From a virus (taxonomy: Duplodnaviria > Caudoviricetes): 55,441 nucleotides of DNA. Under the pieces are notes generated by a model, which saw only the letters and a list, made by a program, of their open reading frames with translations, made no database searches and was not told where the DNA came from. A program made the position numbers and the translations under genes. Shown here in pieces: positions 12,541-51,712 of the stretch. The stretch covers positions 1 to 55,441 of the IMG/VR virus record IMGVR_UViG_3300032327_000488. One strand, 5' to 3'. Numbering within the stretch: position 1 is the first letter of the stretch; the number at the start of each line of letters is the position of its first letter.

Positions 12541-12542
12541 AA

Positions 12543-12803: not shown

Positions 12804-12931
12804 CACCACTCCACTTCTATAAACTTTCACCTGTGACACTAGCGTAACGCACGCGAACAGTAGGAGGAACACGCCCAAAAGTACGCACAACCAGAACACA
12901 ACACCCGTCTATGCGTATCTTTTCTGCAACA

Positions 12932-33178: not shown

Positions 33179-34006
33179 CTAGTTATCGAAGTTTTGCTGG
33201 GCCTTGTAATTACCCTTACGGTTATTGCGCCTAATGCCATAAAGGTTGCCAGTAGCACTACCAGCAACGCTACCAGCAATAGCACCGCCAATAACGGCAG
33301 CAGGCTTACCGCGGCCAGCAACACGTCCCAAAGTAGAGCCAGCAATATTGCCGGCAAAACTGCCGCCAAGCGTAGGAATATAAACATTACCAAAAGCATC
33401 AAGCTTACGGCCCTTACGACCCGCAACAAGCGGATGAACACTAGGAAAAGCCAAGCCCGTCGCAATACGGCCAGCAGACGGCCTGCCACTAGACGGCCGA
33501 TCTTCCTTCTTCACCTGATAATCAGGATGCTTCACCGCACGCTTACGACCAACATAATCAGCGCGAGTCAACGCGGCATCAAAACCACCGTAAGCACCAG
33601 CCAAAGCACCAAGACCAGCACCCGCCAAAGCGCCACGAGGACCGCCAATGACAAGACCCGCAGCACTACCAAGACCAGCACCAGTACCCGCGCCAACAGC
33701 CGCGTACTTGCCAGCCTTCTCCCGGCGAGCCTGACGAATCTCACGAAGGAGAATCTTCCGATTGTTTTGAGCTCCCTCATGGCCATACATGTCACGGTTC
33801 CACACCACGTGCTTATAAGCGTCAGTCTCGCGAAGACGTTTCTTACTCTCGCTCTTCAAAACCTCATCCGCAAAAGCAGACAACTCACGCAACGACTTCT
33901 CAACACCATACGAAGACACGCGAGCCCCTTTACACGTCTTACATGTACATTCACAGCCCTTATCAGGCTTACCTGGCTTACACCCGCACCCACACGAAGC
34001 GCACAT
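33179..34006 (-). CDS. Metallothionein-like Cys-rich N-terminus plus two cationic glycine-zipper cassettes (putative head cargo)
   Basis: 8 Cys in the first 25 aa; VEK|S and VLK|S motifs; GAGTGAGLGSAAGLVIGG zipper. Confidence 0.7.
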   Translation of the reverse strand: MCASCGCGCKPGKPDKGCECTCKTCKGARVSSYGVEKSLRELSAFADEVLKSESKKRLRETDAYKHVVWNRDMYGHEGAQNNRKILLREIRQARREKAGKYAAVGAGTGAGLGSAAGLVIGGPRGALAGAGLGALAGAYGGFDAALTRADYVGRKRAVKHPDYQVKKEDRPSSGRPSAGRIATGLAFPSVHPLVAGRKGRKLDAFGNVYIPTLGGSFAGNIAGSTLGRVAGRGKPAAVIGGAIAGSVAGSATGNLYGIRRNNRKGNYKAQQNFDN

Positions 34007-34173
34007 CAGGCATCCACCAACTCAACGCGACGAGCTTTCACCCACGACTCCAAACGAAGCCACGAAGCAGCACCCGGAACAACATCACCAGGCTCAAACA
34101 CGCGACCATCAATCACAAGACGCCGTACCGCCCGATACACAGGTTCGCGCACCTTACGAGGACGCCCAGCCAT
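34006..34173 (-). CDS. Small hypothetical protein (55 aa, not in ORF track)
   Basis: MAGRPRKVREPVYRAVRRLVIDGRVFEPGDVVPGAASWLRLESWVKARRVELVDA; coupled at both ends (TAATG, TGATG). Confidence 0.7.
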   Translation of the reverse strand: MAGRPRKVREPVYRAVRRLVIDGRVFEPGDVVPGAASWLRLESWVKARRVELVDA

Positions 34174-34664
34174 TACGTAGTTGTCGCAGTCGTAGACGTC
34201 GTATCAAAGTTGCTAGACGTCACAGTAATCGTAAACGTACTAGCCGTAGCGTATGTACGAGTAGCAGTCCGACCACGCACCGAAGACGAAGACGAATCGC
34301 CCCAGTTGATAGAGAACGGTGCCTCACCACCAACAAGAGTGATCGTCACCTTCTTCGTGAGCGTCCCATCAACCACAGCAGACACAGTGAAGTCATTAGT
34401 CGTACCGCGAGCCAAAATCACGCGACTCTTAGCACCAATAAACACCGGCGTCGGGCGACGCTTACCCTTACGAACACCACCCGACGACGACGTGTTACGA
34501 CCAAAAACGTCAGGAGTCGCATACAACACATTCTTGCTAATCAGCGCATCCAACTTACGAAGCGCAGCAATATCAGCCGCCGAAATCGTCGCATCCTTAG
34601 CATATGACGTGCCACGGAGAACAATCGCCTTAGCGGCCTTAATAGTCGCAGGAATGGTATGCAC
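34173..34664 (-). CDS. Capsid-associated protein with a C-terminal PKD/Ig-like domain
   Basis: FSINWGDSS...TRTYATASTFTITVT PKD signature; directly after the major capsid gene. Confidence 0.7.
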   Translation of the reverse strand: MHTIPATIKAAKAIVLRGTSYAKDATISAADIAALRKLDALISKNVLYATPDVFGRNTSSSGGVRKGKRRPTPVFIGAKSRVILARGTTNDFTVSAVVDGTLTKKVTITLVGGEAPFSINWGDSSSSSVRGRTATRTYATASTFTITVTSSNFDTTSTTATTT

Positions 34665-34673
34665 AACTACCCC

Positions 34674-35891
34674 TTACGCAACAGCGCTGCTAAGGAAATA
34701 CCCCAAGTCCGGAGCAACAACCTTCATGTCATAAGTCATTTCAGCCTCAATACGGTCCGAAGCAATGTTCTCCATACGGAACCGCTTCACCTTGATGCCC
34801 TGACCGTTACCACCAAGATATCCGTTCCACGTAAACGTATAACCGGCAGAAGGAGTCATCAGCGACGGACCCGAAGGAGCATACGCAAACAGCACAGACT
34901 TCGAGTTCGAAATGAAATCGAAACCGACAGTACCAAACGTCAACGTACCCGAAGAAATCGCAGCCGAAGTGTTAGCCGACAGAGTAACCGAAGTACCCGA
35001 AACGGCAGCAACGGTAGTACCCGCGGCAACACCAGTACCCGAAACCGGAGTACCAACAATGATACGAGTATCAGCAGCACCAAGAGTCACCGCAGTAGAA
35101 CCCGAAGACGCCGAACCAACCGCAGTAAACACAGTGTTCACAGAAGCCTGAACACCAGCATCCGGGAACTGAGCAGGCGAACCGAAATCAGTAGCACCAG
35201 ACACACCCGCAGCAGTCGCATACGACGTGTACAGTTCATCCACATCAAACAGAGTCGCAATCAGATCCTCCGTAACAATACCCTTCTGGGTGTACTTGAT
35301 ACGGTCAATAATGTCCGGGTGCTGCTTCAAACCCTTCATAACATCCGCGCCAAGAACGCAAATGTTCGGCTTAAAACCAGTCAACTTACGAAACGCCACA
35401 ACAATGTCAGCAACATCGCTAATCGGATCCGAACCAGCGTCAGACCACTTCACAAAGTCAGTGGTACCAACCTTGTCAGTAGCCCAGACGCCAGTCTTGA
35501 AATAAGCAGCGTTCCAGTCAATATCACGCTGAAGCAGCAACTGGTTCGTAATGAACTCAGTAGCATCCCGATCAAGGTTGAAGTTCGAATCAGCGTTCGC
35601 GCGCAACTGGTCATCAATATCCTTGTGGATACCGTACACATGCGCGAAATACTGATCCGTGGTCAGGTTCCAACCAGAACCCGGAGTCTCAGTACCAGGA
35701 GCACGACGCTTAGCGTCAGTACGACGCCAATCCGCCTTGCTGTACTTCCAGTACAGATCAGACTGCTTAGAAACAGGGACCTTGGGGAAAACCTTATCCG
35801 CAAGGTAGGTCGATGCCGACTGAAGATACGCAATGCTGACGTTAGTTAACGGAGCATTGACGTGAAGGTCGGACTGAGCGGGACTGGGCAT
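34674..35891 (-). CDS. Major capsid protein (lambda gpE-like HK97 fold) with a ~70-aa beta-rich insertion
   Basis: LTNVSIAY...ADKVFPKVPV..QSD.Y; WSD.GSDPI.D; LKQHPDII; C-terminal VAPDLGYFL. Confidence 0.9.
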   Translation of the reverse strand: MPSPAQSDLHVNAPLTNVSIAYLQSASTYLADKVFPKVPVSKQSDLYWKYSKADWRRTDAKRRAPGTETPGSGWNLTTDQYFAHVYGIHKDIDDQLRANADSNFNLDRDATEFITNQLLLQRDIDWNAAYFKTGVWATDKVGTTDFVKWSDAGSDPISDVADIVVAFRKLTGFKPNICVLGADVMKGLKQHPDIIDRIKYTQKGIVTEDLIATLFDVDELYTSYATAAGVSGATDFGSPAQFPDAGVQASVNTVFTAVGSASSGSTAVTLGAADTRIIVGTPVSGTGVAAGTTVAAVSGTSVTLSANTSAAISSGTLTFGTVGFDFISNSKSVLFAYAPSGPSLMTPSAGYTFTWNGYLGGNGQGIKVKRFRMENIASDRIEAEMTYDMKVVAPDLGYFLSSAVA

Positions 35892-35920
35892 ATTAGGATC
35901 CTTCTCTTCTCAGCCCTAGG

Positions 35921-36337
35921 CTACTTCAACAGAACGCTGATCAGTTCGCCCGTAGTGGACGAAGACTGAAGCGCAATACCATAAACTTGCTCCGTACCAG
36001 ACTGTGCAATCGCGCGACCAACAGAATCACAGGTCACAGCAGCACCCGCGGTAATCGCCGTAGCGCCACCACCAGACTCAACATAAGAAATACCGCGAAT
36101 AGCGACAGACGCAGCACCACCAACTTGCTGCGGCTTATTCTGCAACACGCCAACAGAACGATCCGACGCCTTCGTAGTGCAAAGACCAACCGTGTACTTA
36201 CCAGTCACCTTCACAAAACGGTACATACGACCGTTGTTCGGCGAAGCCGCACCAGTCTGACCAGGAACACCAGTAAAAATACCGATGCTCGAGTCAGCCG
36301 CGAAACTCGCAGAATGAAAATTCTCGTCGAAAGCCAT
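35921..36337 (-). CDS. Capsid decoration/cement protein (DUF2190-like)
   Basis: YRFVKV...GVLQNKP...ITAGAAVTCDSVGRAI...GIAL...GELISVLL. Confidence 0.8.
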   Translation of the reverse strand: MAFDENFHSASFAADSSIGIFTGVPGQTGAASPNNGRMYRFVKVTGKYTVGLCTTKASDRSVGVLQNKPQQVGGAASVAIRGISYVESGGGATAITAGAAVTCDSVGRAIAQSGTEQVYGIALQSSSTTGELISVLLK

Positions 36338-36345
36338 CTCTTACG

Positions 36346-37347: not shown

Positions 37348-37426
37348 AGAACTAATCATGGAGCACAACTCCCGCCTGCGCGATAGGGATACGCCATAAA
37401 TATTTTACAAACAACAAAAAAGTAGA

Positions 37427-38653: not shown

Positions 38654-38913
38654 CCCAACATCTCCAACGGCGAATACGCCAAACCACGAGCACCAACAAA
38701 AGCGTAAGCATTCCGAGACCCCTGGCGACGCTCAGCCCGCGAAAGCTTACGACCCATCAACGCAGCACCGTTATCAAGCATGATCCGGCTAGACGCAAAC
38801 ATCGCCAACGGCGAAACAGGATCCGAAGACACACGACTCGACGGAATACCAATCGACGGCATAATCAAATCATCCGGCATACGCCCATAAGAACGAGGCT
38901 CAAACAAAGCCAT
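38650..38913 (-). CDS. Hypothetical protein
   Basis: 87 aa; coupled to both neighbours (TAATG, ATGA). Confidence 0.6.
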   Translation of the reverse strand: MALFEPRSYGRMPDDLIMPSIGIPSSRVSSDPVSPLAMFASSRIMLDNGAALMGRKLSRAERRQGSRNAYAFVGARGLAYSPLEMLG

Positions 38914-39644: not shown

Positions 39645-39707
39645 ACAAACCTCCACCTAGGGCTAGTCTTATCATCCCGCACAAAAGTAACAGACGCCAC
39701 CAAGGAA

Positions 39708-42074
39708 TCAGTATTCCCCGGGCAGACTTACCGTCACCAAACGGATAGGAACGTTACCAATATCCCCCAACTCACGCCGCGACATAGTAAACGCCTCCGC
39801 CAATGACTCCTTCGCAAATGGACTTTCGTGAATTGCTATACGAACGTCCTTGTTAGTCCGAAACGCCTTCAACGCGGCGTCAGAACCGGTAACAAAAACC
39901 GGGGGATCTCCGGGGTCGTAAGCAACCCGTACGGCTACAACTTTCCCGTCCACAGAATCAACACGTACACCGCTGCTCAAAGCAGTGTACGGAGATTCCA
40001 TGCGTTCGCGGGCGTAATGATCCTCTTGAATTTCTACAGCACGATCCTGCACTTGTGCAAGGCTTCCGGAATCTGCCGAAACACGCTGTTCAAACAAAAC
40101 CTCGCCTTCTGATCCATTACCGACGCTAATGTAGTTGTGCATTAGATTAGAAAAACGCGTCAACGGGCTGTCCTCAAAAACATACCCAGGATCTTTCATG
40201 CGAGCAGTGAACGTAGCCCCAAGAACCCTATCTAGGTCGTTTACAGCAAGGCTGGTACGTGAATCTTCACCCGCAAGCATGTCCATGAAATGGGCAGACG
40301 ACATCTGGTAACCCTTAGCTTTGCCATAATCAAGCCTCTCAAAAACTTGCGTAGACGGTTGAGGCGTTGCGGCAGTCTTTCGACGCGCAGGACGTTTCGG
40401 TGTGCCCGCAGACGCCACAGCAGGTTTAATTACAGTCTCAACAGGAATAGCATGCTCGCGAACAGCATGTTCCCTAACCGCATGCTCCCTAACGGCATGT
40501 TCGCGAACAGCATGCCGAGGCTGAAAAGCCTCCCGGCTTTTAGCAGGTAACAGCGCAGACAAATCAGTCAACGTAGGAGAAACCTTTTTCTCCTGCCGAG
40601 CGACAGGCCGATTAGCTCGCTCCAAACGAGCGAGACGCTCTAACCGCGGATCCACGTCAGCAAACTTCCCATCCGCGTCCCGCTCAACATTGACCATCCG
40701 CAACTTGCCATCCACACGCCACTGCTCGCGCGACTTACCAAGCTCCTCACCGTCGTACGTAAAACGCCACTGCTGAGGAACCAAAGCATAGTGTCCAACA
40801 GGAGTATCTCTGCCAGAAAACATCACAGGATCCGGATTGCTGTCCTGAAAAGAAAAACGCGCCTGATTCGGAACAGAGAAACCTTCACCATCAGTGCCGC
40901 CATCATAAATCGGCACAGCGCCCGAAATGATCAACATTCCCATAGGCTCACCGCTTTCCATCATCAAGTTAGACCACGCACCCGAGTCGCTCTCAACAAT
41001 CCTACGATCAGAAAAATACAACTCGGTGGCTAACTGATTCTCAATAAGCAAACGCTTCACGTCACCAGCAGTAAAACCATCCTTCTCAAACTGCTGCAAC
41101 AGTCGAATAGGGACATAAGCGATGTGATCCTTCACGTCATGCGCGACATGAAAAGGCTGCTCAACAATCTTCGCTTTAAGCTCCCTCTGCGTAACAGCCC
41201 TAGGAAGCTTACTTAAAGATGGAGTTTTCCTAGCCTTCGGCTCTTTCGGTTTAGCAACATCAGGCTTAGCGTGCTCACGAACAGCATGCTCTCGCTTAGC
41301 ATGTTCCCTTGTTGCGTGTTCGCGAACAGCGTTCGGTCGCTGTTCAGCCTTTAGATCAAACAAAGACATCAAATCAGACAGCGCAGGTTTCTTATCCTCA
41401 CGCTTCATAGGAACGGCATTAGAACGCTGCAACCGCTCTAAACGAGCAAGCCGTTCAACATCCTCAGCAGAACGACCAGGCTTCACCGCAAACTTACCTT
41501 CAGGATCCCTCCGATGATCTTCCTCACGGAAACGAACAGCCTTCGACACTTCCGCGCTCGACTCTCGAGCACCCACATATGAAGCAAAATCCATCAAAGA
41601 ACGATCAGCCGCATCAACACGCACCACAGGAGACACCACAGGAGCCTTCACAGCATTCACATACGAACCAACACGCTTCGCAGGAACGCCCACCACATCA
41701 GCAGCACGCTCCACCGCAAAAGGCATCGGAACACCCGCAGAAGACCACACAGTCAACACATGAGAAACACCCTCAACAGCATCCTGATGAATCTGCGACG
41801 CCAACAACCGACCATACTCGCTCGAAGCATCACCCATCACCGGCTCAACAGCCGCAGACAACGCCTTCGCAACGGGAGAAAAATCGGCGCTATTCAACGC
41901 GTCAACGACATCAGCCGCATCAACCAGCGAACGACCCGTCAAACCACCCAACGCCGACTTCGCAAGCGCGTGATACCCCAACACAGCCGAACCCACACCC
42001 TGCACCACGTCACGGCCATCAATACCAGCCAGAACAACGCGAGCCGCGCCCTCATCATCCCACCAGCGGTCCAT
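39708..42074 (-). CDS. Large head-associated protein with an internally duplicated module and REHA repeats
   Basis: Two copies of K|..RD..GKF..ERLARLER...L.DL..L...(REHA[VKT])n. Confidence 0.75.
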   Translation of the reverse strand: MDRWWDDEGAARVVLAGIDGRDVVQGVGSAVLGYHALAKSALGGLTGRSLVDAADVVDALNSADFSPVAKALSAAVEPVMGDASSEYGRLLASQIHQDAVEGVSHVLTVWSSAGVPMPFAVERAADVVGVPAKRVGSYVNAVKAPVVSPVVRVDAADRSLMDFASYVGARESSAEVSKAVRFREEDHRRDPEGKFAVKPGRSAEDVERLARLERLQRSNAVPMKREDKKPALSDLMSLFDLKAEQRPNAVREHATREHAKREHAVREHAKPDVAKPKEPKARKTPSLSKLPRAVTQRELKAKIVEQPFHVAHDVKDHIAYVPIRLLQQFEKDGFTAGDVKRLLIENQLATELYFSDRRIVESDSGAWSNLMMESGEPMGMLIISGAVPIYDGGTDGEGFSVPNQARFSFQDSNPDPVMFSGRDTPVGHYALVPQQWRFTYDGEELGKSREQWRVDGKLRMVNVERDADGKFADVDPRLERLARLERANRPVARQEKKVSPTLTDLSALLPAKSREAFQPRHAVREHAVREHAVREHAVREHAIPVETVIKPAVASAGTPKRPARRKTAATPQPSTQVFERLDYGKAKGYQMSSAHFMDMLAGEDSRTSLAVNDLDRVLGATFTARMKDPGYVFEDSPLTRFSNLMHNYISVGNGSEGEVLFEQRVSADSGSLAQVQDRAVEIQEDHYARERMESPYTALSSGVRVDSVDGKVVAVRVAYDPGDPPVFVTGSDAALKAFRTNKDVRIAIHESPFAKESLAEAFTMSRRELGDIGNVPIRLVTVSLPGEY
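40450..40515 (-). repeat. Pentapeptide (REHAV)n coding repeat; second array at about 41269-41330
   Basis: RHAVREHAVREHAVREHAVREHAI and NAVREHATREHAKREHAVREHAK. Confidence 0.85.
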
Positions 42075-42097
42075 CAACAACCCTCACATAGACAAAA

Positions 42098-43078
42098 CTA
42101 TGCGTTCACATTAGCAGCACGCAGACGCTGAGCCCGATACTGAGCAACACCCAACTCAACATCCTCCGCCGTAATACGCGTCAAATCAGCGTCCTCAGCA
42201 TTAGCAACCCGGCGCACATGCGCCTGCCTAATCGCCTGAACAATGTTGCGGGCATTACGAGCATTACCCTCACCCAACTCACTCACCGCAGAACCAACCA
42301 ACTCCGCAGCCCGCTTATCAAGCTTGTAATCACCCTTCTTGAAAAACAGCCCAGCAATCTTCGTCAAATCCTTAGACGAATAATCAGGGAACTCAATGCT
42401 GGTAGTGAACCGCGACTCCAAGCCCGGGTTCGTCGCAAGAAACTCACCCATCTGCTTCGGATAACCAGCAAGAATAACCACCGTGTCATCACGATGGTTC
42501 TCCATCAACTCAAGCAACGTATCCACAGCCTGACGGCCATACATATCATCCTTGCCCTGAACAAGCGCATACGCCTCGTCAATAAACAACACGCCACCAC
42601 GAGCCTTATCAAACTGCTCCTGCACCAGCGTCTGAGTCTCACCCAGATGCGTACCAATCAACTCCGACTTCTTCGGCGCAACAAACTTATCCGAAGGAAC
42701 CAAACCAAGAGCCTTATACAATGGAGCAATAGAACGAGCAATCTCCGTCTTACCCGTACCCGGATTACCCACAAAAATCATGTGCTTAGTGTCCTGCTCA
42801 ACAGGCAAACCTTCCGCCTCACGACGACGGTTATACACACTCGTCGCAATCAGCGTATTCACCTGCTGCTTCACCTTCGACATACCAATCATCGAACCAA
42901 TGCCGGAAACAATCTCCGTCACCTTGTCGTAATCAATATCAGAAAGATCCGGCTCCCCTACACCAGAGGAAGACCCACCGCTTTCCGCAACATCACGTCC
43001 ACCGAGCGCGGGTGATCCCGCGGCAACACGCGCACCCGTCGGGACGAGAGCCCCTTCGCGAGGGGCTGCACTTTTGGG
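42098..43078 (-). CDS. CbbX/SpoVK/EccA-type AAA+ ATPase, probably expressed as a -1 frameshift fusion with the upstream ORF
   Basis: Walker A GNPGTGKT, Walker B VLFIDEAY, VVILAGY and NPGLESRF; the frame is open upstream of the annotated GTG (42922) to the slippery site. Confidence 0.85.
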   Translation of the reverse strand, partial: PKSAAPREGALVPTGARVAAGSPALGGRDVAESGGSSSGVGEPDLSDIDYDKVTEIVSGIGSMIGMSKVKQQVNTLIATSVYNRRREAEGLPVEQDTKHMIFVGNPGTGKTEIARSIAPLYKALGLVPSDKFVAPKKSELIGTHLGETQTLVQEQFDKARGGVLFIDEAYALVQGKDDMYGRQAVDTLLELMENHRDDTVVILAGYPKQMGEFLATNPGLESRFTTSIEFPDYSSKDLTKIAGLFFKKGDYKLDKRAAELVGSAVSELGEGNARNARNIVQAIRQAHVRRVANAEDADLTRITAEDVELGVAQYRAQRLRAANVNA

Positions 43079-46000
43079 GAACCACCCCCCGCAGGATCCA
43101 TCACATCAATCACTTCACGCACGCGCTTCAAAGCACGCGCCTGCTGAAACAGCAACGCCTGAGCAGCAACAGCAGACGGCTCAAAATCAGACGGACCCGG
43201 ATTATTCTTACCCGTCAAAAGTTGCAAACCCTCCGGAGGGATCCCGGACATTTGAGCCATCTTCGGCAAAAGACTAGCCGGGTTGCTCACAACCTCAGAG
43301 CGCGCCTTCTCCCATGCGTCAGGCAAACCCTTCAACGCAGTAAAAAGAGACTCAGTATCAGAAGGCACCGGAAGAAGAGCAATAGCCCTACCCGGACCAG
43401 CCTCAAACGCATTCAACTGCGCACGGTTAGTAATACCAACAAGATTACTCGTCAACTGCGGCTTAGCCCCCATATAGAACGGGTCATCGCCCACACCGCT
43501 AAACGGATTAATCAAATTAGAAGCAGAAACAAGATCATCTACCAAAGACACCACATACTTGCCCGCGTCTGAAGATGACTTAGCGCCACCAAACGCCTCA
43601 CTCATTGAAGAATCATGCGCAATAACATCGTCCTTAACGGACGGACCAAACAAATAACGGAACGCGCTCGTCATAGCTTTAGAATCAGACGCCACACGCA
43701 AAGCAACCGGGTCAGACTCAATCAAAGACCGCAACTCACGCGGATCCTTCAGCAAAAACGCAGCCATCGCATTCGAATCACCAGAATCAACCGCGTCCCG
43801 CCACGAATCATGCGCCGGTTGAACCGTATTCACACTAGAAACCGTAGAGTTCAACGCCGTATAAGCCTGATTCACCGCAGTCTTAGCAGGAGCGTCATAC
43901 AACTTCAAACGATCCAACAACGGAGCCGAACGCTGCGCAGAAGGCGCACTCGGCGCATCAGGCGACTTAGGCTCCTCAGAAGACTTAGGCGTAGACGAAC
44001 TACTAACTCCGCCAGAAGAACTACTAGTCGCACCGCTAGCCGCAGGCTTCTTATAACCAACCGACGGACGCAACTGGCCAGCAGGCGTATACCCGCGATC
44101 CCGACGCGAAGAAGACTGCAACACCGCGCCCACACGATCATCAGCGCCACGCGACGTCAAAAAGCCAGAACCCTCACGACCAGTACGACCAGTCGCAAGC
44201 GGCTCATACGACACATTCCGAATGAAATACGGAAACTGCTGCTGCAACGTCTTCAAAGCAACCTCATACCCGGCAGCATTCAACGCCAAATCCTGAACAG
44301 ACTCATTTTGGCGCTCAAACTTGATCTCGTCATATACGTCAGCAACACGACGAGCCTGTTCCTGGCCACTCAAACGAGCAAAACCCGGCTCCTTACGAGC
44401 AGCAGCCTCAGCCTCAGCTTGAACTTCCTCCGGATTAATACCCGAACGCTGCTCATCACGCTTCTCATCCAAAATACGGTTACGAATCTTCGTACGCTCA
44501 TCGTTCGTATCCGCACTGGCAGGCAAATTAGACGTCAACAGCCTCGCCGTACGATCCGCGTCGTCATAAACCTGCGGAGAAACATCCTTCAAATACATGC
44601 CCGAATTGTTGACAGCATCAAGAATCTTCAAATAACGCCCGTAAATCTGGCGAGCCTTATCAGAATTACCCCGCGCTCCACGAAAGTTCGGATCAAACTC
44701 AAGAGAAAACACACCAGACGAAGAAACAACAGTCGCCATACGTGCACCAGAAGACACAGACGCGTAAATGTCCTCACCCGTCAAACCACCAGCCACCCGC
44801 GTACGAACATACTGACCACCACGCAAAGCAGCCATGTTCTTCAAATTAAACGGCAAATAATGGTCATCAGCGTAACCAACCGACTGCGACACCACCTTAC
44901 CGTCCGCATCAATCAGCACACCCTGACTCGGCAAAACATGCCCAGACGCCTCACTCAAACGCGCCGTAAAAGAATCAGTCGGCAAAGTACGCGCAAGATG
45001 CGCCGCCGCAACATCCGACTGCACCTGCAACGCCAACTGATCACCAGAAGCATCACGACGACGAGCCAAATACGCGCCCGTCACAATGCCACGACCACGC
45101 AAACCCTGCTCATCATCAAAAGCAGAACCAGCAACATTACCATCAGCAATAGCACGCACCGACTTCATATCCTGGCTAGCGAACTCTTGGCGAAGCGAAG
45201 CATCCGGAGTCTTCTCAGTCCCACGATACCGATACGCAGACTGACGAACATACGGACCCAACACTTCCTCAGCCTCAGGACCAAGAGTGCCCACAAGACC
45301 AGCAAACCCAGCAGCTTTCGCGTTACCCGTAGCAGCCAAAATGTTAGACGCGCCCCTCATACGGTCAAACAACACCGCAGAACCAGACTCATCAACACCG
45401 CGGCGACCAAACGTCTGCTTAAAAGAACCACTATCCAACGCTGTAGTCGCAGCATCCCCGCCAACATAACCAAACGTATTAAAACGAGCCACACGCTTCT
45501 GAGCAGCCGACGAAGCATCCGGAGAAACAGCCACCTCAAGAGAAATGATCTGATCACTCAACGGATTCAACGTCATCGCCACGTCATTCGGCAAACCATT
45601 ACGCGCAGCACTCAAAGGAAAAGACAACGAAGGTTGCATCTTCTGACCATCACGCAAAACCTCCATCTCAACCATGATTCCCTTAGAATCACCGCCGAAC
45701 TGGCGATACAACTCCTTCGCATGACCAGACGCCTGCTCATACTGAGACTGATGCTCGTCCAACTTGCGCTTCTCTTCCGGACTATCCTTCACGCCATCCG
45801 AATACTTACCATCAGCAATATTTCCAGTCGCCACAATCGCAGGCGACAAACCAGCACCAGCGCCAAGCGCAGACGTCTTACGTTGCGTATCCACCACACG
45901 ACCAAAACGACCAGTCGCAGGATCCCGCTCAACAAAAACCTGCTTCTTCTTACCGTTCATATTCCACATCTCGCCAAAACGAGCCTTAGAAATGAACTCC

Positions 46001-46269
46001 TCAATACCAGCCAAATAACGAGCAGTCGTCAACAAGTCATCATCTGGATACGTACCATCAGCCACCCGCGAAACGTACAGACGGCCAAGCGCAGCCTTCG
46101 CAACACTCGTACGCTCCTGCGCCTCATCCGCAGCGTAAGCCTGCAACATGGCATCATTCGCCTCAAGCAGATCCATCACATAATTCGACACAGCCTCATC
46201 CACAAGAACAGCCGCGCCCTCAGGATCAGCAGCAAAAGCCGCATCAATCACGCTCACCAAATCAGTCAC
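42958..46269 (-). CDS. Large head-associated polyvalent protein with a degenerate JAB/MPN-like domain
   Basis: 1103 aa; ISK|A then VERDPATGRF tag; GVLIDADGKVVSQSVG...QYVRTRVAGGLTGEDI..ARMATVVSSSGVFSL. Confidence 0.75.
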   Translation of the reverse strand: MTDLVSVIDAAFAADPEGAAVLVDEAVSNYVMDLLEANDAMLQAYAADEAQERTSVAKAALGRLYVSRVADGTYPDDDLLTTARYLAGIEEFISKARFGEMWNMNGKKKQVFVERDPATGRFGRVVDTQRKTSALGAGAGLSPAIVATGNIADGKYSDGVKDSPEEKRKLDEHQSQYEQASGHAKELYRQFGGDSKGIMVEMEVLRDGQKMQPSLSFPLSAARNGLPNDVAMTLNPLSDQIISLEVAVSPDASSAAQKRVARFNTFGYVGGDAATTALDSGSFKQTFGRRGVDESGSAVLFDRMRGASNILAATGNAKAAGFAGLVGTLGPEAEEVLGPYVRQSAYRYRGTEKTPDASLRQEFASQDMKSVRAIADGNVAGSAFDDEQGLRGRGIVTGAYLARRRDASGDQLALQVQSDVAAAHLARTLPTDSFTARLSEASGHVLPSQGVLIDADGKVVSQSVGYADDHYLPFNLKNMAALRGGQYVRTRVAGGLTGEDIYASVSSGARMATVVSSSGVFSLEFDPNFRGARGNSDKARQIYGRYLKILDAVNNSGMYLKDVSPQVYDDADRTARLLTSNLPASADTNDERTKIRNRILDEKRDEQRSGINPEEVQAEAEAAARKEPGFARLSGQEQARRVADVYDEIKFERQNESVQDLALNAAGYEVALKTLQQQFPYFIRNVSYEPLATGRTGREGSGFLTSRGADDRVGAVLQSSSRRDRGYTPAGQLRPSVGYKKPAASGATSSSSGGVSSSSTPKSSEEPKSPDAPSAPSAQRSAPLLDRLKLYDAPAKTAVNQAYTALNSTVSSVNTVQPAHDSWRDAVDSGDSNAMAAFLLKDPRELRSLIESDPVALRVASDSKAMTSAFRYLFGPSVKDDVIAHDSSMSEAFGGAKSSSDAGKYVVSLVDDLVSASNLINPFSGVGDDPFYMGAKPQLTSNLVGITNRAQLNAFEAGPGRAIALLPVPSDTESLFTALKGLPDAWEKARSEVVSNPASLLPKMAQMSGIPPEGLQLLTGKNNPGPSDFEPSAVAAQALLFQQARALKRVREVIDVMDPAGGGSPKVQPLAKGLSSRRVRVLPRDHPRSVDVMLRKAVGLPLV
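43049..43078 (-). other. Putative -1 frameshift signal C CCA AAA plus a 7-bp hairpin
   Basis: In-frame heptamer at 43072-43078; stem AGCCCCT/AGGGGCT (43049-43067) begins 4 nt downstream. Confidence 0.7.
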
Positions 46270-48977
46270 GACACACCCTCCATCGCACTAGCGTACCGCT
46301 TATAACGCGCACTAGTCGTATCCACAGGCGACAAACCACGCCCCGGACCATACAACCCAGCACGCGCACGATCAGAAGCCTTCGCCTCAATACGAGACAA
46401 ACTCCTACTACGACGACGCGCAATCTTCGCAGACTTCGCAGACGTATACCCAGACGCCAACATAGCAGCACTAGTCACCGCAACAGCAGGACGATTCACA
46501 GGACGACGCCGCGCATCATGAGCCAACATCCACCCAGACAAACCAGTCAACCCAGCGTTACCAACAGCATTAGCCCGATTCTCGTTACGCTCAAACCTCA
46601 AATGACGGTAACCCGCCTCAGACTCAGGCGAAACACGACGAAAATCAATCGCTTTCGCCAAATCATCCCACTTATTGTCCTTCACCCGCTGCTTAAACCA
46701 ATCAGGCATAGGAACACGAGGACCCTCACTGGCAGGCGCAACAGCGCCTGGACGATTCTGACCCGGAACAAACGTCAAATGCTTCTGATGAACAGCCGTC
46801 TGCCGACCATCCAGCAACACGTTGAAATAGTCCTTATCATGCCGATTCAGAACCTTAATCATCTTCCCCGTAGGGCCATACTTCGCAAGGAAAGGCAAAC
46901 CCTTCACCACCTCACCCTGAACCATCTTTCTCACAAACACACCACCGCTCCCGCGAGGATGCTCACGCTCCTCCCACTTATTTGCCCCATACACAGGAGC
47001 ACCAGCAAGAGTCGAATAACCCACAGCACGACGAGTCTTACCCAAGAAAGGACGACCACCCGGCAACATGCCATACCAGTCAATAGGCTGACCGTTCTCC
47101 TTACCAGCAAGAAAACTTTGAGCCTCAGGCGACAACTTAGAACGCGCACGTTCCGGCGTCGTCATACCAAGACGAGCACCCCGAATATGGCTACGAACAG
47201 CACGCACATCTTTAGGACTCAAACCAGAAAGCTCAGGAGTAATAGTGCGCGCCGCATACCCGCCATAAGCATACCCAGGCACATACTTAATGCCCTTCTG
47301 CCTCCACGCCGTATAACCCTGACGGCCACCATCCATAGCGCTCTTATCTTCCGTATACCCAGCAGAACGCCACAACATCCCAGGAGACTTTGAATCCCCC
47401 AAATTACCGCGGATCTCCCGAACAAGACCAGAAGCAATTCCATTACCTTGAGCCCACGGCTCAAGTTTCATGTTATTAACCTTCACGTGCCCCGTCGGCA
47501 AAACCATCGCCTCAACAAAACCAGCCCTACGATGCCGACCAGTCTCCGGATGCGGATACGTAATATCAGCCTGAAAAGTACGCGCACCAAGAGGCGAAAC
47601 AGACCGCCCCTTCTCATTAGTCAACCACGACTTGTTTTTGATGCGCGCGCCTGACTGCAAAAAATCAGACGGAATAATCTCGTCAAGGATCCCTGAAGCA
47701 CGCCTATCAAAACGGGCTTCCACTTTACGGCCGAGCGCAGTCATAGGAGCCGTGCGGCTCACAGGCCCAGCAATCTGCTGATACGTGCGATTAAACCGCC
47801 CCAACGCAGCAACAGACGCCTTCTCAACTTTCATACCCCCGGCAACCATGTTGTCGTAAGCATTCGGATACGGGCGACCAGCAGCACGAGCACGCGCCTT
47901 AGCACGCGCCAACTCCTTTGGAGAAAGAGCCTTCTCCACTGAACGCGCTATATCGCGTTTCCTAGCTCGACTCATGATGTCGTCTCGACGTATTTCTTTC
48001 GGCAAAGGAGCCCGAAGCAACTTAGGCGCAGCAGCGTCTATACCCTTCGGATACAGACGGCTCGGGCCTCCCATAGACTCACCTGCTTGAGGCGTCAAAA
48101 AAGAAACAACACGATGTTTCTTTTTTTCTTTAAAGCCGCTGCGATGAGCATATCCGCTAGCCTGCTCACGGCTGGCAGACGTATAAGCCCCTGGGCCGCC
48201 AAGTCCATCCGTCGAAGGCCGAATAAACCCCTCACGCTTAATGCTTCTAGCGTTCGCCAATGTAGTGCCATGAAAACGACGAACCGCCACCATTTTCGAC
48301 ACAGGATCACGCCGACGCTCCAAACGCTGCTGAGCCGCATAATTAAACGAACCAGCAGAACCCACACCAATGGCACCAACACCAAGAGTATTAGACGCAG
48401 ACGTCGCAGCAGCCTCACGCGAAGCAACCTGAGCAAGACGCGCCGACCGCACACCCCGCGAAGCCAACGCCTTAGCGCCCTGCGGAGTACGCAACCCCAG
48501 CGCAGTCAAACCCATCGTCCCCGAAACAAGAGACAACGAACGACCAGCAGACCTATGCCGATCCAACTTACGCGCCTCAGACTCAGACAAAGCCTTCGCA
48601 ACACGATCCTGATACGTCGCATAATGCACCGCAGGCTTCACCACATCACGGCCCAACTGCACACGATCCACACTCTTACGGTCGCGCAACGCCTGATACC
48701 CGCCAACAACCAAAGGCACACTCGACAACTGCATACCACGCTGCACCAACCGGCCACCCGCGTCAGGAATATGCGAACCCGAAGACAAACCCCCAGGACG
48801 CTTACGCGCAGACCGATAAGCAGCAACCGCCACATTCGCAGTCCCACGACGAGCAAGACGCAAATCCAAACCATGACCAACAAGCTTCGCACCAGCAAGC
48901 AACCCCGCACCCGCAGCAATACGCTCCGCCGCAACACGAGGATTAGGCTTGCCCTCCGGCTGACTGGTTTCCGCCAT
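46266..48977 (-). CDS. Modular head-cargo polyprotein (Gly-zipper, ART-like, GNAT-like and SH3-like cassettes)
   Basis: GGAGG RBS; FHGTT...GPGAYTS...ASGYA; LEPWAQGNGIASGLV; EHPRGSGGVF; VxK separators; occupies the post-portal (MuF) position. Confidence 0.75.
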   Translation of the reverse strand: MAETSQPEGKPNPRVAAERIAAGAGLLAGAKLVGHGLDLRLARRGTANVAVAAYRSARKRPGGLSSGSHIPDAGGRLVQRGMQLSSVPLVVGGYQALRDRKSVDRVQLGRDVVKPAVHYATYQDRVAKALSESEARKLDRHRSAGRSLSLVSGTMGLTALGLRTPQGAKALASRGVRSARLAQVASREAAATSASNTLGVGAIGVGSAGSFNYAAQQRLERRRDPVSKMVAVRRFHGTTLANARSIKREGFIRPSTDGLGGPGAYTSASREQASGYAHRSGFKEKKKHRVVSFLTPQAGESMGGPSRLYPKGIDAAAPKLLRAPLPKEIRRDDIMSRARKRDIARSVEKALSPKELARAKARARAAGRPYPNAYDNMVAGGMKVEKASVAALGRFNRTYQQIAGPVSRTAPMTALGRKVEARFDRRASGILDEIIPSDFLQSGARIKNKSWLTNEKGRSVSPLGARTFQADITYPHPETGRHRRAGFVEAMVLPTGHVKVNNMKLEPWAQGNGIASGLVREIRGNLGDSKSPGMLWRSAGYTEDKSAMDGGRQGYTAWRQKGIKYVPGYAYGGYAARTITPELSGLSPKDVRAVRSHIRGARLGMTTPERARSKLSPEAQSFLAGKENGQPIDWYGMLPGGRPFLGKTRRAVGYSTLAGAPVYGANKWEEREHPRGSGGVFVRKMVQGEVVKGLPFLAKYGPTGKMIKVLNRHDKDYFNVLLDGRQTAVHQKHLTFVPGQNRPGAVAPASEGPRVPMPDWFKQRVKDNKWDDLAKAIDFRRVSPESEAGYRHLRFERNENRANAVGNAGLTGLSGWMLAHDARRRPVNRPAVAVTSAAMLASGYTSAKSAKIARRRSRSLSRIEAKASDRARAGLYGPGRGLSPVDTTSARYKRYASAMEGVS

Positions 48978-50445
48978 CACTACCTCCCGGTGTCATCCCC
49001 TGCTGAGCAGCCACATACTCCGCATTAGCCTGAGCAAAACGAGTCGCCTCACTACGCATCTGCAACAACCGACGCTGCTCAACCTGGTCATCATCCAACT
49101 CAGGCAAACGCGCAGCCGAACGAAGAAAGTTCTCCAAATTCCCATCCGGAAACCAAGAAACACCCATCGAAGCCATCGAAGACATAAACGACGACAACAC
49201 CGTAATATCCGGCGCATCAACATCCGTCGGCACAATCTTCGGCAACTCCGCAGGCTTCCACCCATTCACCAAAAACAATTTCGGAATCGCATGCCGGTTA
49301 ATCGTGTCCGCAATCGACTGCGTAATCGAATTCAACGACGTACGAAAAATACCCGTCTTATCCGTATGCAACGAATACGACCCACCACCCTGATGACCAA
49401 CCATAATGAAATCAGCCAACACACTCATCAAAATGCGTTCCTCATACCGGCGAATAATCACATCCGTATTGAACGCTCGAGCGCCACCACCACCCAGCAA
49501 CTCAAACGAATACAACGGCTGCTTCGTGTCCTGATCATACGCGGCAGGAAAAACCATACCCTCCTGATCATTACGACGAACCGACTTCACCAGCTTACGA
49601 AACGCATCAACACTCTTCGCCTGATCACTACCCGGCTTCGCCCGCAACATCTCCGCAGGCACCTTCACCATAGGCAAACCAGCAAGATCACGCTCAACAC
49701 CAATAGACTCAAACTCTTCCATCCGCTTCTTAAAAAACCACGGACGGTAAGCACCACGAAGCATCGAAACACCCTCAGGGCTGTTCTTATGATGCCGATA
49801 CCGGAACAACAAACTGCGCTCCATCGGAACCACAACAGTCCGATAATTCGGCGGCGCAATCTGCGTCATACCAATCGCATCACCCGAATCATCAAACACC
49901 CAACGCAGCAACGTATCCTGCGAACGAATCGGCATCTTACGCCAACCCACACGACCATCAGACTGACTCGAACGACGCTTAGGATCCTTCTCCCACGGCC
50001 CCTGACGACGCTTATACACAACCTCATGCCACGACCAGCCATACACCAACATAGAAAGAACTTCAGAAATGAAGTCATCCCATGTATGAGACATATCCTC
50101 CATGCACGTCTCAACAAACTTAGCCGCCTCAGCGTCCTCCTTTGACTTACCCGCAGGCTCCACATGCCAATCTACGTTACGAAGCAGCCGGTCAATCGAA
50201 AACAACAACGCCGCCACAATCGGGTCGTTCAGCGACATTTCCTTAAAAACCTCAACGCCCTTACGGCCCTTAACCTGAGGAAGGAACTCCTCATCAAGAT
50301 ACCCAGACGCACGCCGCAAACCAGACGAACCCAACTCCAAAAACGGAGAAGCCGACTCGCCAGCTTTCAACTCTTCAGAGTCGTTAATTACCGAAGAAAG
50401 ATTAACCGAACCCTCTCTCGGACGAAGAACAGAGTCATCACTCAT
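48943..50445 (-). CDS. Portal protein (DUF935/Mu gp29-like)
   Basis: ELGSSGL...EEFLP...NDPIV; YGWS.HEVVY; PEG.SMLR.AYRPW; GVERDLAGLP; GSYSL; INRHAIPKL. Confidence 0.9.
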   Translation of the reverse strand: MSDDSVLRPREGSVNLSSVINDSEELKAGESASPFLELGSSGLRRASGYLDEEFLPQVKGRKGVEVFKEMSLNDPIVAALLFSIDRLLRNVDWHVEPAGKSKEDAEAAKFVETCMEDMSHTWDDFISEVLSMLVYGWSWHEVVYKRRQGPWEKDPKRRSSQSDGRVGWRKMPIRSQDTLLRWVFDDSGDAIGMTQIAPPNYRTVVVPMERSLLFRYRHHKNSPEGVSMLRGAYRPWFFKKRMEEFESIGVERDLAGLPMVKVPAEMLRAKPGSDQAKSVDAFRKLVKSVRRNDQEGMVFPAAYDQDTKQPLYSFELLGGGGARAFNTDVIIRRYEERILMSVLADFIMVGHQGGGSYSLHTDKTGIFRTSLNSITQSIADTINRHAIPKLFLVNGWKPAELPKIVPTDVDAPDITVLSSFMSSMASMGVSWFPDGNLENFLRSAARLPELDDDQVEQRRLLQMRSEATRFAQANAEYVAAQQGMTPGGSDGGNQSAGGQA

Positions 50446-51665
50446 CAACGCTCCCCAGAGCCCTTGACGTACCATGAATCAATCTGATCACGGCTCATAT
50501 TACCGGCAGGCAAACCCGCCCGATAAGCAGCCGCCTTCGCCTTACCATGATCAATCGCCGCACGGCGACCAACCACAGCCTGAGAAGCATACCGCGGCTG
50601 GGCAGGCTTAGACCCATAACTACGCGAACGCTCCACGCCCACCATGCCGCCCACCATGCCAGCAAAACCAACACCAGCAGCAACACGACCGCCCCGAGCA
50701 ACACGACCAAACGTACGCGTCACCTTAGGAGCAGTAGCAGTAAACCCACGCCACTTACCCGCAGCCTCAGACGCCTTCTGACGCGCGTGCTTAGCAGCAA
50801 ACTCCTGCTGATTCTTCAACTCACCAAGATCAACCATCTGCTTTGCACGCGTAGCCTGCACCCGCTTTGCCTCAGCGACATCAGCAGGATTCGAACGATC
50901 CATCACGCGAGTAGCCTTCTCGTCATCAAACAAAGGCACCTTACGGCGATCCTTACCCCGCCCGTCCAACCAACCATTCAACGTATTCCACTGACGAGTT
51001 GAACCCGCAAGTTGACTATCAGCAGCCTGAGCGGCAGTACGCATACCAAACGCACGATTCTTAGCCGAACGGAAATCATCACGCAACGCGGAACGCGCAC
51101 GATCATCAGCCGCTTGAGCGCCAGCAACACGACGCTGCCCATACACAGACGCGCCAACACCAGCCAACCCCACACCAGCGCCCACACCAGCGCCAGCCAT
51201 GTAACGACGTTGATCAGACTTCACAACTCTCATAGTACGCAAAGCTCCTCGCGTAGCAGCCTGCGGCCAGTTAAACCGCGTCGGAGTCGGACCAAACTTC
51301 TTCGGGACAAACTTAGGCTGAGTCTCAAGCGTCTCAGACTCACCCAAACGCCTCAAATGCTCACGCGCAAGATCACCCTCAGGACCGCCACGAGCCACAT
51401 GCTCACGCAAACCATGAACCCGAGACGAAGCCGTAGGCTTCCACTCCCGATTGTCCTTCGTGTGCCGTTCAAACCGGATCCGCTCATTCAACTTCGCCCG
51501 ATGATAGCGATTCGTCCGATTCATATAGACAAGCTCATTTGCGGCAAAACCCGCAATACCCACCTGAGCAGCGCGATGAATACGATCAGCCCGGTCATCA
51601 TCGCTTTTCGACTTCTGCTCATTCCGCCCAACAACACCAACAGCACCAAATCGTTGTTGAGTCAT
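50445..51665 (-). CDS. Cationic glycine-zipper protein upstream of the portal (putative head cargo)
   Basis: Arg-rich; MAGAGVGAGVGLAGVGA and VAAGVGFAGMVGGMVG helices; stop overlaps the portal start. Confidence 0.65.
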   Translation of the reverse strand: MTQQRFGAVGVVGRNEQKSKSDDDRADRIHRAAQVGIAGFAANELVYMNRTNRYHRAKLNERIRFERHTKDNREWKPTASSRVHGLREHVARGGPEGDLAREHLRRLGESETLETQPKFVPKKFGPTPTRFNWPQAATRGALRTMRVVKSDQRRYMAGAGVGAGVGLAGVGASVYGQRRVAGAQAADDRARSALRDDFRSAKNRAFGMRTAAQAADSQLAGSTRQWNTLNGWLDGRGKDRRKVPLFDDEKATRVMDRSNPADVAEAKRVQATRAKQMVDLGELKNQQEFAAKHARQKASEAAGKWRGFTATAPKVTRTFGRVARGGRVAAGVGFAGMVGGMVGVERSRSYGSKPAQPRYASQAVVGRRAAIDHGKAKAAAYRAGLPAGNMSRDQIDSWYVKGSGER

Positions 51666-51712
51666 ACGCTTAATAATGCCAACACAACAAACACTAAACA
51701 AGCCGTTAGAGG

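Follow-up and report, generated by a model that had tools for sequence, protein, structure and literature searches.

A lysine-centred motif marks module and propeptide boundaries in viral head-module proteins and points to probable processing by an XkdF-type protease

Background

Do the large proteins encoded around the capsid gene of an uncultured tailed virus carry a common cleavage signal and, if they do, what would become of the proteins cut at it? The question is raised by the head module of IMG/VR virus record IMGVR_UViG_3300032327_000488 (Duplodnaviria; Caudoviricetes), the whole of which, 55,441 bp with an estimated completeness of 74 %, constitutes the window analyzed here. An earlier reading of the DNA, made without database searches (the sequence-only reading), had proposed that several of these proteins are polyproteins from which the prohead protease, by cutting at a short motif, produces many small effectors inside the head. 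We find that the motif is enriched in the head-module proteins of the window and of related loci, that its lysines are conserved and that it stands at module and propeptide boundaries, which supports regarding it as a real, selected feature of these proteins. In the reading that we favor, and consider probable, virion-internal polypeptides are cut after the motif lysine, within the procapsid, by an XkdF-type protease encoded in the same module.

Methods

The main motif tested was [VIL]-x-K-[ASGM], with the cut assumed to fall after the lysine; below, a slash within a site marks this position, P1 and P1′ are the residues before and after it, and h in h-x-K stands for a hydrophobic residue. Open reading frames (ORFs) of the window were divided into a head set (14 ORFs, 6062 amino acids, aa), a tail set (12 ORFs) and a set of other ORFs (15 ORFs), and proteins without an established name are designated by their length in residues (e.g. 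p904). Related viral loci were retrieved via the portal (80 loci) and via the major capsid protein (MCP; 68 loci). Homologues of p904 were obtained with a full HMMER search against 1.84 billion representatives, which gave 136 matches. For the module-start test, p904 was cut at its sites and each piece was searched against this homologue set. The conservation test took in every lysine of the window proteins aligning to at least half of the relatives. Individual relatives and related loci are cited by their handles (P0075, L018 and the like).

Results

The 14 head ORFs contain 38 matches to the motif, against 19.1 expected from composition (z = 4.6), a count reached by none of 1000 shuffles; shuffling inside 30-residue blocks, which keeps local composition, lowers the expectation to 17.9 and leaves the outcome unchanged. 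Tail ORFs, with 13 matches against 12.8 expected, and other ORFs, with 5 against 7.3, show no such excess, so that the comparison of head and tail ORFs proposed in the sequence-only reading came out in its favor. That reading had also cautioned that the motif occurs in the tape measure protein, as it does, yet the 9 matches there (7.07 expected) are within chance and the head-wide excess stands. An Arg control, [VIL].R[ASGM], is not enriched in the window ORFs. All 28 sites quoted in the sequence-only reading are present in the translations, and its remark that the protease and the scaffold bear the motif too is borne out by the single-ORF counts, which are clearly in excess in the 340-aa scaffold-like protein (8 matches, 1.1 expected; 0 of 2000 shuffles), in the protease (5 against 0.98) and in p904 (7 against 3.06; p = 0.03).

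The reversed pattern is also enriched (36 matches, 19.2 expected), because the actual motif is hydrophobic-small-Lys-small-hydrophobic: class-palindromic lysines, at which both directions match (h-[small]-K-[small]-h), number 11 against 1.1 expected (z = 9.3). In its extended form the consensus is hydrophobic, small, Lys and a small residue (A, S, G or M), after which Leu and Ser/Thr are frequent. No DNA-level repeat that might denote a recombination site is shared by the sites, the commonest 9-mers occurring at 3 of the 38, and the signal is hence at the protein level. Single-position profiles around all lysines were weak. A Lys-anchored expectation-maximization motif search was discarded: because the sequences are related, it converged on conserved structural segments of homologous domains (e.g. 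YLPFNLKNL and EEIEKAAY).

In the related loci, 189 distinct ORFs downstream of portals hold 490 matches against 304 expected (z = 10.4), a count inflated by homology, and 208 ORFs upstream of portals hold 156 against 147; the Arg and Glu controls are flat in the related-locus ORFs ([VIL].E[ASGM], 301 against 311.9). Given this inflation, tests that are not based on plain counting were added. Mean lysine conservation is 0.54 for motif lysines (n = 28) and 0.24 for other lysines (n = 132; Mann-Whitney p 1.7e-5), and the best-conserved lysine of the entire protein is a motif lysine in p790 (K180), p1103 (K95) and p408 (K319). In the module-start test, h-x-K lies within −5 to +1 of the start of a p904 module in 119 of 198 internal cases (60 %), compared with 11.7 % at random positions.

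The same alignments set apart some quoted sites that are probably chance matches. SVAK/A of p1103 (K58) lies within a helix and its P1′ residue is mostly Arg in relatives; VRK/A of p408 (K139) and VLK/S of p275 (K51) are mostly aligned to gaps; IAK/S of the scaffold-like protein (K212) has a lysine conservation of 0.27, and both VVK/S sites of the protease (K12 and K108) are poorly conserved.

The long genes of the window lie on the minus strand throughout. They are transcribed in the order terminase, exonuclease-like gene, p418, Mu-like portal, p904, p1103, AAA+ ATPase, p790, XkdF/S78_2 protease, p87, p408, scaffold-like protein, decoration-like protein, E-like capsid protein, p163 and p275. 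The segment from portal to protease (portal, p904-like, p1103-like, AAA, p790-like, protease) recurs in this order in related loci. The block of extra head genes described in the sequence-only reading is present, with the non-core genes totaling ~13.3 kb rather than the ~14 kb given there. The genes that bear on the motif and their immediate neighbors are:

48943-50475, minus strand: Mu-like portal (Pfam Portal_Mu, E 3.8e-33; phrog_113, E 1.5e-85), with one motif match, which is no excess
46266-48980, minus strand: p904, multi-module protein directly after the portal
42958-46269, minus strand: p1103
42098-42922, minus strand: AAA+ ATPase, EccA/SpoVK/CbbX-like (Pfam AAA, E 4.2e-17; AAA_lid_6, E 5.2e-7)
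39708-42080, minus strand: p790
38913-39656, minus strand: XkdF/S78_2 protease, with the Peptidase_S78_2 domain at aa 118-244
38650-38913, minus strand: p87
37427-38653, minus strand: p408, Gly-zipper-rich, with VVK117/G and YGK319/A
36346-37368, minus strand: p340, scaffold-like, with nine h-x-K-[AS] matches and no family match
35921-36337, minus strand: p138, decoration-like
34674-35891, minus strand: MCP, E-like (phrog_1005, E 1.3e-84)
34173-34664, minus strand: p163
33179-34006, minus strand: p275, with a Cys-rich N-terminus, a Gly-zipper and VEK37/S

The virus is probably a siphovirus, since the window encodes a tail-tube protein and a 1775-aa tape measure protein and lacks a sheath gene; a WhiB-type gene (10907-11251) suggests that its host is an actinobacterium. 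For both portal and capsid protein, identity to the counterparts in Laroyevirus (Arthrobacter phages), in RDJL-like phages and in others is ~43-45%.

The boundary position of the motif is most apparent in p904. Local alignments of its 136 distant relatives break at residues 129/130, 229/230, 350/351, 685-687, 690-694 and 770-781, coinciding with sites named in the sequence-only reading; the claim made there, that the motif recurs where domain identity changes, holds for these module breaks. The sites delimit the following parts:

48594..48980, minus strand: M1 (aa 1-129), N-terminal anchor of Gly-rich hydrophobic helices, ending in RVAK129/A and conserved in 42 phmmer matches
48294..48593, minus strand: M2 (aa 130-229), second anchor, bounded by K129 and PVSK229/M, with 109 matches
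47931..48293, minus strand: M3 (aa 230-350), ADP-ribosyltransferase (ART)-like, of the PARP / ART-PolyVal type, ending in SVEK350/A
47820..47930, minus strand: M4 (aa 351-387), small 'ALSPKE..RPYPNAYDNM' module ending in KVEK387/A (phrog_34011, E 6.8e-8)
46926..47819, minus strand: M5 (aa 388-685), GNAT acetyltransferase-like, ending in HPRGSGGVFVRK685/M
46653..46925, minus strand: aa 686-776, comprising a peptide (686-693) and M7 (694-776), with EVVK693/G and DLAK776/A
46269..46652, minus strand: M8 (aa 777-904), conserved C-terminal helical hairpin anchor, with 85 matches

Among relatives, h-x-K stands at the M1/M2 junction or a few residues away from it, and 2-7 residues upstream of the conserved 'FL' of M8. 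Many matches to M2 are internal in other proteins, and 73 of 99 internal starts have h-x-K within −5 to +1, against 11.2% at random. In the AlphaFold2 (AF2) model of p904 the helices of M1 (14-127) and M8 (785-873) are confident; the model is poor overall (mean predicted local distance difference test score, pLDDT, 48.9) and unusable for placing the sites in linkers. Gly-zipper-type hydrophobic helices abound in the anchor modules, as they do in p408, p275 and p418.

The window copies of M3 and M5 have no Pfam match of their own, and the likeness of both modules to enzymes is seen in their relatives. For M3, relative P0075 matches ART-PolyVal (E 7.9e-4) and PARP (E 1.1e-3), both below cut-off, and the animal homologue P0090 matches PARP at E 1.9e-27. 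Five of the 12 members of the M5 family match Pfam Acetyltransf_1 (best E 8.1e-8), and in a search of PDB with the family profile the five best of 8 matches are named acetyltransferases (top E 9.5e-4); local alignments of M5 relatives stop at 685-687. By eye, M3 is preceded by [VIM]-x-K in P0009, P0026, P0010, P0075, L063 and L007, and M7 by VSK in P0010 and VAK in P0003, in each case directly before the assumed cut. M4 has 14 homologues, 4 of which begin at residue 1-2 of stand-alone proteins, and Lys occupies precisely P1 in all 10 fused forms, so that a cut there would restore the N-terminus of the stand-alone form.

Across the p904 family, a variable cargo of 58-573 aa is placed between conserved anchors, with h-x-K on both flanks in all 45 members, where random positions give 34% and 30%; the junctions are homologous and do not amount to 45 separate events. 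For insertions between M1 and M2, the motif is found on both flanks in 4 of 8 within the windows used. Cargo cassettes are thus gained or lost in relatives between motif sites, as the sequence-only reading had anticipated of homologous loci. Inside the cargo of 44 relatives a tighter form of the motif is enriched (26 against 14.8, z 2.9) and h-x-K followed by a non-small residue is depleted (52 against 85.7, z −4.05), and the ART-like and GNAT-like modules of p904 have motif sites on their flanks and none within. Judged by its homologues, p904 would be an ART-like and GNAT-like multi-enzyme protein of the kind predicted to be packaged, and its gene stands among head genes. Pfam searches of p904, p1103 and p408 at E up to 5 matched no family at all, including zincin-like MPTase, LPD and MuF domains, nor did phmmer searches of PDB sequences with p904 and p1103 return anything at E up to 1.

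The two large proteins encoded after p904 carry their best-conserved motif lysine behind an N-terminal region, and p790 has a further site inside:

45985..46269, minus strand: p1103 N-terminal helical propeptide (aa 1-95), predicted, ending in FISK95/A
42961..45984, minus strand: p1103 body (aa 96-1103), large conserved protein with no named function
41541..42080, minus strand: p790 N-terminal conserved region (aa 1-180), with PVAK72/A and EVSK180/A
39711..41540, minus strand: p790 units 1 (aa 181-449) and 2 (aa 450-790), each beginning after a site (K180 and ELGK449/S)

In p1103, K95 is Lys in 36 of 38 aligned relatives, and in 106 of 115 full-length proteins of the family a [VI]-x-K stands 10-30 aa ahead of RDxxGRF. 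The AF2 model (mean pLDDT 73.6) places K95 at the end of helix 77-98, before a disordered stretch (98-113), and PLAK1072/G in another (1061-1081). The protein has 174 homologue clusters; no Pfam domain was found among the 120 clusters listed, whose names, where given, are 'hypothetical' or 'uncharacterized', and even at E up to 5 neither p1103 nor p904 matches Pfam Phage_Mu_F. Foldseek searches with the p1103 model gave no PDB match at E <= 0.001 and, in BFVD, one homologue and weak 'minor capsid protein' models (E 5e-3 to 0.14). The ESM Atlas yielded no usable match, and residues 21-107 aligned with VIA-align to generic helical hairpins only (Z <= 7.2, below the meaningful level for helical models). 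Overall, the picture for p1103 is of a single large conserved protein that begins with an apparent propeptide of 95 residues.

The p790 protein looks like a propeptide followed by two units. Among 23 relatives, 22 keep Lys at K180, and at K72 13 have Lys and 8 have Asp; K449 is kept as LKK/S in the closest relative, L089. Each unit consists of a site, a (H)RRD/ERD-xxGKF motif, an RLxRLER coil and AVREH repeats. A tblastn search with p790 found one relative, 33% identical, in L089; for aa 290-790 a word-based homologue search found only the protein itself, the related-locus search with p790 found none, and the Pfam search of p790 at E up to 5 gave one weak, unrelated match (Collagen_mid, E 0.22). 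At the DNA level, 15-bp tandem repeats at 40445-40515 (4.7 copies) and 41260-41303 (2.9 copies) encode the AVREH-type pentapeptides of both units.

A second sequence, (E)HPRDxxG(K/R)F, sometimes degenerate, follows h-x-K sites at a distance of 8-30 residues in 25 of the 31 places where the pattern was matched among the locus ORFs. Its copies in the window are at aa 189-198 and ~473-480 of p790, aa 114-122 of p1103 and aa 672-681 of p904, and it would sit near new N-termini if the sites were cut.

The AAA+ ATPase between p1103 and p790, syntenic in 13 of the first 80 related loci, scores above the Pfam cut-offs (PF00004, 63.2 bits, cut-off 21.2; PF17866, 30.1 bits, cut-off 24.3). Its NCBIfam matches to EccA (E 1.1e-67), SpoVK (3.1e-67) and CbbX (2.2e-56) all fall below the equivalog cut-offs; for EccA including its TPR N-domain (TIGR03922) it reaches 228.8 bits against 466.65, over profile positions 276-550 only. 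The protein, which lacks the TPR domain, may serve as a chaperone that loads or unfolds the large internal proteins.

The sequence-only reading cited S78 prohead proteases of the HK97 type, and the gene set contains a member of the XkdF/S78_2 family. It matches Peptidase_S78_2 (PF14550) over profile positions 5-126 of 126 (E 3.9e-18; 66.1 bits, cut-off 24) and has three candidate catalytic residues, H173, S190 and S235, each conserved at at least 0.98 across 52 aligned sequences. Its gene lies between the portal and capsid genes, an order kept in related loci. A phmmer search of PDB gave only short ubiquitin matches, regarded as spurious. The N-terminal extension of the protease ends in AVSK50/M, and K50 is Lys in 42 of 51 relatives. 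By its family, the protease would be the probable agent of cleavage after the motif Lys.

GenBank records of 11 cultured Rhizobium phages (RHph_*) name the XkdF protease gene 'DNA methyltransferase/prohead protease protein', and the matching gene of RDJL Phi 1 and 2 in RefSeq is labeled 'DNA methyltransferase', as is phrog_1530, which the window protease matches. The proteases so annotated may represent a simpler form of cargo riding on the protease.

The capsid protein contributes a different kind of boundary evidence. The N-terminus of the MCP, 'MPxPxQSDLHVNxPLTNVS' (35850-35891 in the window), is conserved in relatives and has neither a delta domain nor an upstream extension; cutting of the MCP from a fused scaffold was considered and rejected, as capsid ORFs with an intact 5′ end begin with a conserved N-terminus where homology sets in or a few residues from there. 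When a strict pattern is applied, 11 of 51 relatives have a copy of this peptide (M-x-P-x3-D-h-H-V) in the protease extension, and degenerate forms were seen by eye in others. The stretch AVSK/MSPAPSDVSV of the window protease (39480-39510; aa 50-59) fits the strict pattern. Further copies are found in four other ORFs, three unclassified and one p408-like (L061:4885-6825, L083:16057-17988, L142:10039-10524 and L117:5602-6672). In every match listed, h-x-K directly precedes the residue matching MCP Met1, so that cleavage would expose an N-terminus in register with it; the copy may be a capsid-loading or scaffold-binding mimic exposed in this way. The MCP itself, at 405 aa, is longer than its full-length relatives (324-355 aa) and has a Ser/Thr/Gly/Ala-rich insertion of ~70 residues (aa ~250-320) that is absent from L089 and L112.

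Position and composition suggest that p340 is the scaffold. It evolves fast, and in 48 relatives its K40, K190, K203, K237 and K308 are Lys in 38-47, against a conservation of at most 0.36 for non-motif lysines. In p408, K319 is Lys in 16 of 16 aligned relatives and K117 in 9 of 14. The Gly-zipper_YMGG match of p275 (E 1.8e-6) is just below cut-off, and its K37 is Lys in 8 of 15 relatives. Counterparts of p87 and of module M4 of p904 are joined in one protein in P0100, P0107, P0113, P0075 and P0089, with M4 as the N-terminal and p87 as the C-terminal half, either as one small protein (P0100, 121 aa) or at the C-terminus of a post-protease gene (L089:4447-5829, P0089). In the window the M4 half has moved into p904, and modules are therefore shuffled between head genes.

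Discussion

In the processing that we propose, the head module would encode virion-internal proteins in which N-terminal propeptide or anchor, cargo and C-terminal anchor modules are joined by the motif, and the XkdF-type (S78_2) serine protease would cut after the motif lysine inside the assembled procapsid. The cuts would reduce the scaffold-like protein to short peptides able to leave the shell; strip N-terminal propeptides from the protease (50 aa), p1103 (95 aa) and p790 (180 aa); detach the ART-like and GNAT-like parts of p904 from its hydrophobic anchors and divide p790 into its two units; and release the Gly-zipper hairpin modules at the C-termini of p408 and p904. What the sequences support robustly is a pattern in which propeptides are removed, the scaffold is degraded and cargo is released from its anchors. 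The protease is cast as the agent of the cuts on the basis of its family membership and of precedent in T4, phiKZ/SPN3US and HK97. Gene position and the precedent of polyvalent proteins, in turn, suggest that the products would remain inside the head and reach the host along with the DNA. The original notion of polyproteins matured into many small effectors holds in part and is overstated: the motif is at boundaries and p904 has ART-like and GNAT-like cargo, but p1103 appears to be a single protein and cargo-internal sites are only weakly enriched.

Several observations weigh against this interpretation. The motif is short and about half of the 38 head matches are expected by chance; the excess is not significant in p1103 (5 against 2.98), p790 (4 against 2.27), p408 (2 against 1.7) or p275 (2 against 1.3), and there are matches inside predicted helices or folded domains (p1103 K58, K1003 and K1096; portal K297; MCP K186). 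Shared ancestry inflates the conservation counts, because lysines at the junctions occupy homologous positions, as do the flanks of the 45 cargo regions. Within the cargo of the 44 relatives the loose motif is not enriched (46 against 38.4, z 1.25). In L018 (L018:13476-14240 and L018:11037-13454) and in L032 and L045, protease K12 and p790 K72, the two most N-terminal sites, are replaced by Asp, and the downstream conserved sites retain Lys. The context Lys-Ala-Leu-Ser/Thr-x-x-Glu also suits a helix N-cap, and part of the signal may hence be structural. No tblastn match to p904, p1103 or the scaffold was found in 50,697 phage records, so that no cultured phage carries them, and large quantities of protein would find little space in a siphovirus head of ~75 kb. 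Finally, literature searches, which covered listings and selected passages, returned nothing specific on XkdF specificity or on Lys-specific prohead proteases.

The cleavage may be real and its substrates of another kind, with the large proteins forming an assembly core or scaffold that is degraded and expelled, and the enzyme-like modules acting in the producing cell or the procapsid. T4 core proteins are indeed degraded to peptides, and here the enrichment is strongest in the scaffold-like protein, p1103 and the anchor modules have no recognizable enzyme fold, and an AAA+ chaperone-like ATPase is encoded within the module; in SPN3US, too, propeptides are described as generally leaving the head in passages of PMC10052503. 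We nevertheless judge this account unlikely. It does not sit well with ART-like and GNAT-like modules that are bounded by sites and contain none, with a domain pair that passages of PMC5512222 present as typical of proteins predicted to be packaged and injected, or with Gly-zipper hairpin modules that appear to resemble membrane-active ejection proteins.

A motif without any proteolysis would be a structural or interaction element, such as a helix-cap linker (K-A-L-S/T-x-x-E) or a lysine binding the capsid interior, DNA or the portal, and it would recur because modules are shuffled together with their native termini. A hydrophobic-small-Lys-small-hydrophobic core with S/T-x-x-E after it fits a helix N-cap, as does the position of some sites in confident AF2 helices; stand-alone M4 proteins retain 'ALSP' without the Lys, and the Asp substitutions at two sites in some loci speak for it as well. 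Yet a cap does not account for the preference for Lys over Arg (the Arg control is flat), the same tetrapeptide class stands at junctions of unrelated modules, in the fast-evolving scaffold and directly before copies of the MCP N-terminus, and the depletion in cargo of h-x-K followed by a non-small residue resembles avoidance or selection of a recognition site. On balance this explanation strikes us as quite improbable. That a short pattern should simply recur in proteins rich in Lys, Ala and Val is suggested by its four degenerate positions, by the roughly 19 matches expected in the head ORFs and by the four of seven named proteins that are individually not significant; the head-wide z of 4.6, unaltered by the local-composition shuffle, the conservation test and the boundary tests all run contrary to it and make it a very remote prospect.

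Processing of internal head proteins at a shared motif has well-known counterparts, and to describe the locus as a new system is an overstatement, for head maturation in T4 and phiKZ/SPN3US, like the polyvalent proteins, follows the same logic. In T4 one prohead protease (gp21) acts on core and packaged proteins (IPI-III, Alt) at a shared motif, with removal of propeptides, much as proposed here. Cleavage in T4 follows Glu (L/I-x-E), not Lys; T4 is moreover a myovirus of Proteobacteria with a protease of another family, and its cargo is encoded by separate small genes rather than by anchored multi-module proteins. In HK97, gp4 (Peptidase_S78) is a serine prohead protease of the same clan and is itself processed, the family here being S78_2. 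It cuts gp5 after Lys (K103/S104). In HK97, however, the substrate is the capsid delta domain, whereas the MCP of the window has none and the proposed substrates are a separate scaffold and internal proteins.

One of the T4 cargo proteins, Alt, is an ADP-ribosyltransferase (passages of PMC5512222), and p904 carries an ART-like module. According to passages of PMC10052503, head proteins of SPN3US, phiKZ and T4 lose propeptides of 20-254 residues to the head protease, which acts at a short motif and cuts propeptides at several places; the processed SPN3US proteins include the abundant ejection protein gp54, and a P1 Glu (E-124) is given there. The long propeptides of phiKZ, 201phi2-1 and SPN3US (gp175/gp245) are matched by those proposed here, whose 50-230 aa fall within the 20-254 range, and a conserved h-x-K is likewise shared among p1103 (K95), p790 (K180), the protease (K50), p904 (K129 and K229) and p408 (K117 and K319). 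Those phages differ in being jumbo myoviruses with genomes of >200 kb and a T4-gp21-like protease that cuts after Glu, compared with a ~75-kb siphovirus, S78_2 and a P1 Lys; sites on both sides of exchangeable cargo are a feature of the present family. Because the protease is of the S78_2 family and the Glu control is not enriched, the locus would work like the T4/phiKZ kind without being a member of it.

Polyvalent proteins (Iyer et al. 2017, PMC5512222) resemble p904 in that, in the passages concerned, they are large and multi-domain and are encoded by portal and head genes; they are predicted to be packaged and injected, and their neighboring ART and GNAT domains have putative counterparts in the ART-like and GNAT-like modules of p904. 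Autoproteolysis by an embedded zincin-like metallopeptidase is proposed for them there, a domain not detected in the proteins searched here; the junction motif and terminal anchors, which those passages do not describe, are features of the window. MuF toxins and SPP1 gp7/Mu gpF likewise share with p904 a large post-portal protein with variable effectors that are thought to be delivered with the DNA (abstract of PMC5576092). Their effectors are at the C-terminus; in p904 the cargo lies between two anchor modules, and there is no Phage_Mu_F match. The listings and selected passages covered by the literature searches included no paper on this clade, on the motif or on XkdF specificity.

If the cuts are real, head-protease processing known experimentally in T4 and phiKZ-like jumbo myoviruses would extend to mid-sized actinobacterial siphoviruses, with a different protease family and a different P1 residue. 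The motif would then be the first predicted substrate specificity for XkdF/S78_2 proteases, and would provide a sequence rule for the mature products of hundreds of 'hypothetical' metagenomic head proteins, such as the 174 clusters of the p1103 family. The p904 family would constitute a natural case of ART, GNAT and other cargo carried between fixed anchors, of relevance to host takeover and to engineered delivery. A more far-reaching interpretation, which we advance tentatively and regard as possible but doubtful, is that widespread uncultured actinobacterial siphoviruses use a plug-and-play arrangement, in which a domain inserted between the p904 anchors or behind the p790 and p1103 propeptides would be loaded, freed at h-x-K by a Lys-specific XkdF-type protease and delivered to the host. 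Under that interpretation the cleavage sites would double as seams for the exchange of cassettes between genes and phages, and the mimic of the MCP N-terminal arm and EHPRDxxGRF would act as loading or retention signals.

Additional features of the window

Upstream of the portal lies a gene whose part in the system is uncertain; its product has homologues in 2 related loci only and contains one motif match (1.13 expected):

50445-51701, minus strand: p418, Arg/Lys- and Gly-zipper-rich

Downstream of the tail genes, within 7367-12899, the following genes were also recognized:

11722-12540, minus strand: M15 peptidase endolysin with a PG-binding domain
10907-11251, minus strand: WhiB-like
10492-10947, minus strand: weakly sigma-70 region-4-like
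7367-10495, minus strand: 1042-aa protein with an S74 intramolecular chaperone domain

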